Origin: a virus
Lineage: Duplodnaviria; Heunggongvirae; Uroviricota; Caudoviricetes
Length of the DNA stretch: 11,743 bases
Strand: one strand, 5' to 3'
IMG/VR virus record: IMGVR_UViG_2645727555_000019
Below, in pieces: positions 1 to 3,000 of the stretch. A program made the position numbers. The number at the start of each line of letters is the position of its first letter. The stretch's first letter is position 1.

Positions 1-3000
1 TTCCGTTCATATGAGCAAAAGTGGTGTTGAAGAAACATCCGTTTTGTGATGTTTTTTTAATCTTTTTGGGGTTTTAATTCCTATCGATGAACGTTACGGG
101 CAATTTTCACAGAGTAGTTAAAAGCTACTCTGTGCTTGAACTCACGTAAAGTTTCACCTTCAAGTTTGAAGAAGTGTTTTTCCTCAATGAAACGACCTTT
201 GTTTTCGTGGTGATTCTGGCGAATACGAATAGCTTCTGTGCCGTAAAGGTGCGCCAAAAGTTCGGTAGTGATAACGGGGATCTGCTTGTAAGTAATCGTG
301 GAGAGTGTTTCAACAGAGATTTGAGTTGTCATAATGACGCCCTCGAGTGGTTTCTTAATAACTCACCACCGACGACGCCAATCGTCTGGTGGTGAACTGT
401 GCAGGGTTGGCGTAACCGGGAAACCGACCGGCGCGGATCTCTCCGCCCCCACACAGCCCACCATAATTCAGATGTGCGCGTGCATACGACAATAAAAAAC
501 ACGCTCGCGGCGTGTATCTGTCGCGGTCTCTATCCAGGACGCCAATCCCGACGCCAGATTTTGCTGGCGCGTGAGGAATATAGCCCCGAATAAATCATCA
601 CGTCAATCACCTTGTTTTCCTCGCACGATGTCTTAGCCACCGGATATCCCACAGGTGAGCCGTGTAATTGAAGGCTTTAACGTCAGATTCTTTTGGGATT
701 GGCCTGGGTTTATTTCTGGAACGTTTCGTTGGAAGGTAATTGCAGTTTTCACAGACTATATCGGTAATGCTTCGTCGCTGTCGTCTCATTCATACCTCCT
801 GTCGGTAAATCTGACACCCTGCTCCACAGCCCAGGAAGTTGTGTACTCAATCAGGCTTGCCATACGCTTCACGCTCATCTGCGCACTGCTTTCGCGGATA
901 TTGACGTATTCACCTTCAAGACCAGGCAAAACATCAGCTTCCTGTTTTGTCGCCACGGCATGACCGCTGATTAACAAAACTTTCCACTGTTCTGGTTTTA
1001 GCCATCTGCCGCACCACTGAACCTGTCGGGAGATATCAGCGACCATCGCGTGAAATTTGGCATTTTGATCGAGATTCCGCTTGTAATCGGTGATGCGGAT
1101 CGTAACGGGTTTGTCTTTATCGAGAGTTGTTGCAAGGATGGCGTTAATGGCGAATTGTTGCTGCTGCTTACTTCGGAGGAAGATAGTCTGGTTCATTATT
1201 CCCTCTCACTGGATTTTCCCAACAAAAAAGGAGCCGAAGCTCCTTTAGTTTCAGAATTCAAATTGTCTTGCCCGTAGGCTTTTCAGCATTGGCATGGCCC
1301 GCTGGATAACGGAACTTGACATGTCGAGACGTGTTACCTCCCTCAGTAGCGCGTCTCTGTTCTTCGTCACCATGTAGATGGTCTCAAACGCAATGTCATA
1401 CAGCTTGTTCGTGTATGAGGAGTTCAGCTCTTTCATAATGGGATACAGGTGTTTGCTGATGTCCTGGGCTTTTTCCATCCAGAGCTGCATGTAGCAAAGG
1501 AGGATGATTTCTTCGGCTGTGAATTGTGGCTGAATCTGCGGCTGCTGTTCGGTTGGTGCTGTTTTTCCCTGGCTGAAATAGCAGTCTTCCAGTTTTTCGA
1601 ATACCTCCCACGCCCGATCGGTTTCGAGCATTTTTGCGTGACGGGCTGCGCCGCGTTCTGTCCAGAGGATGAGGGAGCGGGCATTTTTACCAACTAACCC
1701 GATTGTTTCGGGTCTGTTCTTAAACTCGCGTAATTCGTTTTTTTCAATTTTAAAGTAATGCTTTCCGGGCATGAATCGCGTCGTGTTGTTCAGAAAGTTA
1801 TCAGAAATGTTTTTGATTTTTGTTCCGTAAAGGTGAGCCAACAGTTCAGTAGTAATTACGGGGATCTGGTTATAGGTAACAGGGGAAAGGTTTTCGACAG
1901 AAATTTGAACAGCCATAATGACCTCGCGTTTCGATAATTTTTACCTCGCCACCGTCAGGTGCTAATCATCGTGGTGGCGAACTGTGCGGGGTTAGCACTA
2001 CCGGTCGAAACATCCGGCGAGCCTTTCGGCTCCCCCACACAGCCCGCCATAAATCGCGAATGTGACTGTGCTTAGCGCATAAAAAAACCGCCAGCGCGGT
2101 TATGCACCGTTTCGATATCCGGGGTGCTAATCCCGACGCCAGGTTTTGCTGGCGCGTGAGGAATATAGCCCCGAACACGCGACGTTGTCAAACTGATGGC
2201 ATTGCAGATCCCTACGCAATGTAACACTATGTGTTATACATTAATAACGGAACAAAAAATGCGCATTTTTAAAAACGCCTGGTTTGAGCGACTTGCACGC
2301 AAAACAAAATATCCGACCAATCACTGCGCGAAATTGTTAAACAGGCTGATAACGGGCTTATCTCAGCAAACCTGGGTAACGGCGTTATCAAGCAACGTCT
2401 GCCACGAGTCGGTGGCGGCAAATCTGGCGGTTATCGCACAATCATTTTCTATCGCGTCGGCACAAGGGCCTTTTTCGTATATGCATACGCAAAAAATGAA
2501 CGTGAAAATATAACCGCTACTGAGGAAAGTGCATTTCGGAAGGGGCTCCTCACGTACTCAATCTAACAGATGAACAACTGGCACAACTGATTCTACAGGG
2601 TCAGTTTACGGAGGTACCCAATGAGTAAAAATTACCGCAGTGATGCGCTTGCATCCGTACATGAAATGATGGAATCGCTTCATGATATCGGCGCAGTAAC
2701 GAAACAGACTATGCGAGAATTCGATGAAACTTGTCTCCAGCCAGCGCCGGTAATGTCTCCGGAAAGGATCCGTGCACTGCGCGAACGAGAGCATCTGTCT
2801 CAACCTGTTTTTGCCAGATACCTCAACGTCAGTAAAAACCTGATATCAGACTGGGAACGTGGTGTAAAACGGCCGGGAGGTGCCGCTCTTCGCCTTCTTT
2901 CAGTCGTAGAGAAAAACGGAATCCAGGTAATATCATGATACTCCAATACAACAAAACCCGCCGAAGCGGGTTTTCATTAGAAGCACCTTTAGTTTTGCTG

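Follow-up and report, generated by a model that had tools for sequence, protein, structure and literature searches.

Two probable c4/IsrK-type RNA switches with different recognition codes upstream of antirepressor genes in a lambdoid Escherichia coli prophage

The stretch of DNA analysed here (the window, 11,743 nt; IMG/VR record IMGVR_UViG_2645727555_000019) is the complete contig DF970363.1 of the draft assembly GCA_001297725.1 and represents the early-right region of a lambdoid Escherichia coli prophage, which reads along the minus strand. Its nin region holds two homologous regulatory modules within 2 kb, module 2 before ninB and module 1 after ninE, and coordinates together with Pfam matches place each of them before an antirepressor gene of the ORF6N type. 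The original prediction had claimed that the same promoter geometry, hairpins and terminator recur in the same order upstream of both genes, and a promoter consensus scan, a terminator scan and Rfam bear this out. All module features lie on the minus strand, where that prediction had put them.

Each module consists of a promoter (TTGACR, 18 nt, TATATT), two hairpins, an intrinsic terminator, a structured RNA of about 75 nt, a leader and an ATG. Scanning positions 1-2400 with the promoter consensus returned four promoter-like sites, the two best of which are the module promoters: 606-577 for module 1 (TTGACG at 601-606, 18 nt, TATATT at 577-582; 10/12) and 2191-2162 for module 2 (TTGACA at 2186-2191, 18 nt, TATATT at 2162-2167; 11/12). 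The terminator of module 1 lies at 494-515 (hairpin plus T-run 515-499), at the 3′ end of the isrK match, where it would end a short IsrK-like RNA; that of module 2 lies at 2081-2101 (hairpin plus T-run 2101-2086). Three Rfam families match both copies in identical order and above their gathering scores: isrK (RF01394, gathering 50) at 494-570 (75.5 bits, E 4e-15) and 2081-2155 (74.3 bits); c4-a1b1 (RF03163, gathering 46.7) at 531-583 (50.5 bits) and 2116-2168 (47.4 bits); and the C4 antisense RNA (RF01695, gathering 45), matched over the full-length model at 385-468 (66.7 bits) and 1970-2054 (75.1 bits). The layout of isrK and c4-a1b1, with two 5′ hairpins and a Rho-independent terminator straight after the promoter, is found in both copies. 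Thus the small-RNA hairpins and leader hairpin of the original prediction are present, but they belong to three distinct units: an IsrK-like 5′ RNA that runs to the terminator, a C4 RNA and the leader of the antirepressor gene (ant).

Similarity between the modules is not limited to the coding N-termini. Pairwise alignment of the non-coding intervals 333-606 and 1917-2191 gave 74% identity over 240 nt (blastn E 1e-33) and 211/292 identical positions globally, with a global score of 116 compared with -9.7 +/- 5.5 for 200 shuffles. It sets in at the -35 hexamer and extends over the first 68 codons, where amino-acid identity is 62%, and from the -10 hexamer through the first hairpin the two copies are near-identical.

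Using the annotated mature c4 of phage P1 to set the ends, we delimited a C4-type RNA of about 75 nt at 388-462 (C4-1, module 1) and one of about 76 nt at 1973-2048 (C4-2, module 2). Both minimum free energy folds (-44.5 and -49.1 kcal/mol, respectively) have the shape of the family, a long closing stem around two hairpins, and leave the loop of hairpin 2 and the 3′ junction single-stranded. The loop carries the b′ segment (CGGTTTC, 420-426, in C4-1; GTTTCGA, 2005-2011, in C4-2) and the junction the a′ segment (ACGCCAA, 407-413; GTGCTAA, 1992-1998). In both copies the targets of a′ and b′ are found on the same transcript, a1 and b1 upstream of C4 and a2 and b2 downstream. For module 1, a1 (TTGGCGT, 539-545, in a hairpin loop) and b1 (GAGACCG, 524-530) are carried by the short RNA; a2 (TTGGCGT, 375-381) is complementary to a′ of C4-1, and b2 (GAAACC, 349-354) to its b′ loop. 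This b2 lies 4 nt 5′ of the Shine-Dalgarno sequence (SD) of the downstream gene, ant-1 (GAGGG, 340-344; ATG at 330-332). For module 2, the IsrK-like RNA carries a1 (TTAGCAC, 2124-2130) and b1 (TCGAAAC, 2109-2115); a2 (TTAGCAC) follows at 1959-1965, and b2 (TCGAAAC, 1928-1934) ends 2 nt upstream of the SD of ant-2 (GAGG, 1922-1925). No further pair of a and b targets that might be acted on in trans was found elsewhere in the window.

A three-way alignment with the annotated immI region of P1 places a1, b1, C4, a2 and b2 of the window on the corresponding P1 elements, b2 of module 1 at the P1 b2 position, the SD of ant-1 on the ribosome-binding site of P1 icd and the ant ATG on the icd ATG. The P1 annotation gives a1 as TTGACAG and c4 as 77 nt, with b2 abutting the SD. 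The leader hairpin that presents a2 (364-394 and 1947-1979) has its 5′ arm built from the 3′ end of C4 (CACCACC and CGCCACC, respectively), and for this reason could form only in the unprocessed precursor, in competition with the C4 closing stem. Its arms covary between the copies (A-U in one, G-C in the other), and P1 has a similar hairpin.

The a and b elements differ between the two copies, and all of these differences are compensated in the C4 RNA of the same module. To set this in a wider sample, we collected 80 ninB-centred loci from viral contigs, located modules with a hidden Markov model and aligned 18 distinct modules with P1 (19 in all). The promoter hexamers and their spacing are kept in 18/18 distinct modules while the spacers are variable. 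The lambdoid modules fall into five a-classes (GGCGT, AGCAC, GGAAC, AGGAAC and TGCAC), P1 having its own, and the 18 distinct modules into four b-classes, which are compensated as well. Throughout the 18 modules and P1 the C4 segments fit their own targets, b2 of locus L021 excepted. Across the 19 modules pairing of a1 with a′ holds in 100% of 137 cells, 5 of the 8 pairs are altered on both sides and slid controls reach 12-43%; a′ and a2 are 97.8% paired with compensatory changes, compared with up to 51% for slid controls. RNAduplex runs on whole C4, a1b1 and leader sequences yielded uninformative long pseudo-duplexes, and short single-stranded segments were used instead. With these, the cognate a2 duplexes reach -10.3 and -9.0 kcal/mol and the cross duplexes -2.2 and -4.9 kcal/mol. 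Because a/a′ and b/b′ differ between the copies, each C4 should, by analogy with the experimentally studied switches, likely control its own ant alone. The module of L021 (2996-3287) is chimeric: its b1 (TTCAACC) fits its b′ (GGTTGAT), but its b2 is of the GAAACC type, and the b′-b2 duplex is predicted at only -6.3 kcal/mol. Possibly the module is a recombinant in which ant is less strongly repressed.

The gene behind module 2, ant-2 (1251-1916, minus strand), encodes a 221-amino-acid antirepressor with complete ORF6N and P22_AR_C domains (Pfam), and the identical protein WP_000290554.1 is annotated in relatives. The presumed action of such an antirepressor is to inactivate a repressor of the cI type. 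Knockout of ant in phage 24B lowered late-promoter activity during induction (PMC3064807).

By contrast with ant-2, the gene behind module 1 (ant-1, 81-332, minus strand) spans only 83 amino acids: 81 native codons followed by His-Arg-stop from an insertion sequence (IS). Pfam recovers a partial ORF6N domain (profile positions 3-61 of 86) and no C-terminal domain. In relatives, the intact allele behind module 1 encodes a 227-amino-acid Ant (WP_000211434.1) with ORF6N and P22_AR_C, complete for both domains in FORC_069, and the next gene is a KilAC-type antirepressor. FORC_069, ML35 and others are the best E. coli matches of the window, at 99.9% identity over 89-2300, and their similarity ends at window position 89. 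Compared with the FORC_069-type 227-amino-acid ant, the window is 100% identical in nucleotide sequence from position 89 on and unrelated past ...AACGTTC. Positions 1-88 are the terminal 88 nt of an IS91-family (ISEc37-like) element, and the contig ends inside this repeat. The first 92 nt of the window match multi-copy E. coli sequences at 99-100% identity. Most of these are plasmid-borne, and about 100-190 nt upstream of them lies an ISEc37/IS91 transposase gene; in three unrelated contexts the identity extends exactly up to ...CCTATCGATGAAC (...GATGAAC) and then gives way to divergence.

At the junction, intact relatives read ...AACGTTC followed by GCTCC..., whereas the window reads ...AACGTTC followed by ATCGATAGG; codon 82 of ant onward is GCTCCCTCATCCTCTGGACAG. 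The tetranucleotide GAAC (GTTC on the ant strand) occupies 89-92. Elements of the IS91 family insert beside 5′-GTTC or 5′-CTTG without target duplication (PMC13181058), and the junction follows this target rule, as GTTC abuts the element terminus. The exact 83-amino-acid product occurs on one contig only in a large collection, which is the window itself, and the exact IS/ant junction sequence was not found in genome or viral contig collections. Judged from sequence, then, the 83-amino-acid gene is the full-length 227-amino-acid Ant gene cut at codon 81, within the ORF6N domain, by an IS91-family element. The element would have entered GTTC in ant-1 and left the RNA module fully intact upstream of the stump. 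The truncated paralog that the original prediction took to be what the module drives thus appears to be a casualty of a recent, strain-specific IS accident at the end of a draft contig, and not a designed product.

An independent disruption of the same gene is seen at L018:4865-5109 (IMG/VR contig 2695420569_000025), where ant-1 stands behind an identical module 1 and breaks off at codon 46. The sequence that interrupts it starts with TGAACCGCCCCGGGTTTCCTGGAG and looks like an IS3-family inverted repeat; here too the RNA module is intact.

Both modules are, as their sequences read, of the P1 c4 / Gifsy-1 IsrK switch type, a point that the original prediction had overlooked. Taking together the homology of the two stretches, the positions of their elements, the complementarity and covariation, the IS junction and the placement of b2 2-4 nt upstream of the SD, we consider it very probable that both are switches of the P1 immI (c4) and Gifsy-1 (IsrK) type that silence an antirepressor in the lysogen, and that ant-1 has been cut by an IS91-family element. 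Experiments in P1 and Gifsy-1 supply the model for RNA processing, translational block, anti-antisense action and orthogonality. On that model, the promoter would transcribe a 5′ RNA with the target copies a1 and b1. It is read as constitutive because no LexA-, repressor- or C1-type operator was noticed by eye in the promoter spacers, where no formal search was made. Most transcripts would end at the intrinsic terminator to give the short IsrK-like RNA, while read-through transcripts would contain the C4 RNA of about 75 nt, which would then be excised, a task that falls to RNase P in P1, where C4 represses ant in trans. The single-stranded a′ and b′ of C4 would pair with a2 and b2 of the leader and, since b2 lies so close to the SD, would be expected to block translation of the antirepressor. 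The short RNA, which carries the same a and b sequences, might titrate C4 and so turn ant on.

Several observations weigh against this interpretation or narrow it. The window lacks the icd open reading frame (ORF) that P1 has between c4 and ant and must translate to express ant, the ant ATG standing where icd starts, and the orf45 frame of Gifsy-1 is not conserved, so that translational coupling through an upstream ORF is unlikely. A coupling ORF of the orf45/icd kind was considered and rejected. The reading frames across C4 lack conservation; in module 1 the 57-amino-acid frame that overlaps C4 and whose stop reaches into the ant-1 ATG has no ATG and starts only at GTG, and in module 2 no stop codon overlaps the start of ant. 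As there is no usable upstream ORF, the coupling step of P1 and Gifsy-1 is not transferable to these modules. Discrimination by b is modest, with crude duplex energies of -8.8 and -8.9 kcal/mol for cognate and -7.4 and -4.7 kcal/mol for cross pairs, and C4-2 could pair with the a-targets of module 1 through three G-U wobbles. Orthogonality of the two C4 RNAs may accordingly be incomplete or one-directional. Finally, the contig stops 88 nt into the element, short of the HUH transposase gene and the second (terIS) end expected of an IS91-family insertion.

The wobble pairing (a′ GUGCUAA with UUGGCGU) is one ground for supposing that the modules are not insulated and that one C4, especially C4-2, also represses the other ant, which would make the pair a hierarchy and not two independent switches. 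The b elements of both modules also have a GAAAC/GUUUC core in common, and the cross duplex energies are nonzero (-4.7 to -7.4 kcal/mol). Yet at a the cognate duplexes exceed the cross ones in stability by 5-8 kcal/mol, and P1 and P7 are heteroimmune despite only small differences in their a and b elements, so we hold such a hierarchy to be unlikely. Less likely again is that both modules go back to a recent duplication within this prophage, one of two origins that the original prediction had suggested, the other being module exchange. Duplication would fit the shared architecture and order, the near-identity from the -10 hexamer through the first hairpin, and the ORF6N + P22_AR_C make-up of both downstream genes. 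Against it stand the non-coding identity of only 72-74%, the N-terminal protein identity of 62% and the difference in both a and b codes. Moreover, each module type occurs alone elsewhere and in either slot: a module-1-type core lies before ninB in L026 and a module-2-type core after ninE in L054. Comparison of one-copy and two-copy relatives at the 60 ninB loci with both slots visible gave 33 without a module, 21 with one before ninB only, 4 with one after ninE only and 2 with both, these last being identical to the modules of the window. Across related phages, a-classes, b-classes, promoter spacers and downstream ant genes occur in varied combinations in either of the two nin-region slots, which marks the modules as mosaic. 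The sequence comparison supports cassette exchange between slots, as the other half of the original suggestion had it, over a recent local duplication.

Two further alternatives concern the truncated gene. The original prediction had raised the idea that its product acts as a dominant-negative or decoy, in which case module 1 would be kept to express an N-terminal-only antirepressor. With the promoter, both RNAs and the SD and ATG of module 1 intact, the stump could be translated when de-repressed, and N-terminal ant remnants are found behind C4 modules elsewhere (104 amino acids in L024, 111 in L059). The cut, however, falls inside ORF6N, the IS supplies the final two codons and the stop, the DNA up to the junction is that of the intact alleles, and the exact protein is confined to one contig. 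The other truncations differ in length and cause (in L018 an IS3-family end at codon 46, in L024 and L059 a cassette inserted at the linker), so there is no conserved 83-amino-acid form, and we regard a selected decoy as highly improbable. It is just as hard to credit that the truncation is an assembly artefact and ant-1 really intact. The window is indeed a complete draft contig that stops just inside a multi-copy repeat, but a break at that place is what a real insertion gives; ant and the IS have only the 4-nt GAAC in common, too short for a mis-join, and the junction coincides exactly with the IS91-family target tetranucleotide and with the precise IS terminus seen in unrelated contexts.

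Other variants of the modules and their surroundings were noted in the collected loci. L059:2317-3600 and L024:1805-3300 have C4/IsrK modules followed by the remnants just mentioned, after which comes an insert of about 500 bp with sRNA-Xcc1 (RF02221) and a new ORF6N N-terminus that rejoins the C-terminus of ant. The junctions lie at a duplicated stretch of about 69 nt encoding RSLILWTERGAARHAKMLETD, a conserved linker that looks like a recombination hot spot for swaps of cassettes made of a regulatory RNA and an N-domain. Upstream of ninB, L088:3806-3895 and L001:3816-3906 carry sRNA-Xcc1, and not C4, before the second of two tandem antirepressor-like genes (BRO/Rha family). A second C4 module was sought in the 255-nt gap between these tandem genes; nhmmer found none there, and the Rfam match is to sRNA-Xcc1. 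Thus at least two types of structured-RNA leader serve antirepressor-type genes in these nin regions. In L009:2109-2392 and L024:1534-1817 the first IsrK hairpin, GCGCCAGCAAAATCTGGCGT and otherwise near-invariant, is replaced by the unrelated GGTCGAGTTGGCC and the rest of the module is kept.

The wider context is that of a lambdoid prophage. A cI-like S24 repressor is encoded on the plus strand at 9182-9889, then come cro, cII and the replication genes, and after these the nin region with hok/sok, Fic/Doc and RelE-like toxin-antitoxin modules, followed by antirepressor 2, ninB, ninE and module 1. The two genes between the modules are ninB (786-1196, minus strand; Pfam NinB 1.2e-53) and ninE (607-789, minus strand; Pfam NinE 1.8e-41). 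Close relatives include nin regions of Shiga toxin-converting and other lambdoid phages, as well as chromosomal prophages in 2,384 of the 5,426 complete E. coli genomes. At least 80% of window positions 1-2300 is held in one place by 35 of the 5,426. Three toxin-antitoxin-type loci are packed inside 2 kb of the nin region. A RelE/ParE-like toxin and a helix-turn-helix antitoxin (2196-2938, plus strand) are divergent from module 2. The window, like strain cM8a, differs from FORC_069 with its 112-amino-acid toxin by a C-to-A substitution that turns ACTGCGG into ACTGAGG and by the loss of 1 nt; the overlap of the toxin ORF with the start of the antitoxin is gone, and the toxin ORF may, from its sequence, be a pseudogene. 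The Fic/Doc toxin (2989-3483, minus strand) has a small ORF upstream (3493-3717), and the hok/sok locus is marked by an Rfam sok match at 4032-4206 (minus strand, 116.9 bits).

The switch itself is known biology and not a new system, being catalogued in Rfam and experimentally studied in P1/P7 and Gifsy-1. Our literature searches turned up no account of two copies with different codes residing together, nor of the breadth and reassortment of a- and b-classes in lambdoid phages; these findings are an incremental extension of P1/P7 heteroimmunity. More speculatively, lambdoid E. coli prophages could carry a combinatorial RNA "immunity code", with at least five a-classes and at least four b-classes reshuffled by recombination and two independently gated antirepressors in one prophage. 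Under this tentative proposal, which we think possible but rather doubtful, a module broken by an IS might persist as RNA only, its C4 silencing the same-code ant of an incoming or co-resident phage, as in P1 c4 immunity. Antirepressors decide the timing of the lytic switch of lambdoid prophages, Shiga-toxin phages included, and the stretch ahead of ant, once read as a switch of the c4/IsrK type, offers a concrete, testable control point. An a/b specificity code that differs between co-resident copies also suggests a way to predict mutual silencing or cross-activation of prophages.

One of the closest parallels is the immI region of P1 and P7, where a sigma-70 promoter, a1, b1, a terminator-like hairpin, a c4 RNA of about 76 nt and then a2 and b2 by the ribosome-binding site follow in the same order. 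As in P1 c4, a′ lies in the 3′ junction and b′ in the loop of the second hairpin, and specificity resides in the short a and b complementarities. It is c4 that underlies the heteroimmunity of P1 and P7 (review, PMC12197685). Unlike P1, the window has antirepressors of the ORF6N + P22_AR_C type and not Ant1/2, no C1-type operator was noticed by eye at its promoters, where no formal search was made, and it is a lambdoid nin region with two copies of different code in one genome.

The isrK-orf45-anrP locus of Gifsy-1 is likewise similar: the isrK model fits both copies, a short terminated RNA and a read-through mRNA share one promoter, an antirepressor lies downstream and the host element is a lambdoid prophage, differing in that the window has two such loci and not one. 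Supplying short IsrK in trans increased translation of anrP in Gifsy-1 about 140-fold, and the read-through transcript there is processed to give an RNA of about 80 nt, STnc1160 (PMC4825925). From its position, the same as that of C4 here, we infer that STnc1160 is a C4 homologue. The C4-equivalent region was treated there as "orf45", whose nucleotide sequence is conserved and whose amino-acid sequence is not (PMC4825925), a pattern that fits an RNA. In immI of P22 (sar/ant) a small RNA likewise keeps an antirepressor with a P22_AR_C domain from being translated, but sar is a true cis-antisense RNA from the opposite strand, whereas the regulator in the window comes from the strand and promoter of its target. 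The CI RNA of P4 (seqA/seqC) resembles C4 in being a processed RNA that pairs with two target copies on its own transcript, one upstream and one downstream (PMC4825925); its outcome, in contrast, is premature termination of transcription of replication genes, with no Rfam match and no antirepressor. Phages of the APSE group have been reported with both RNAs (PMC7313666).

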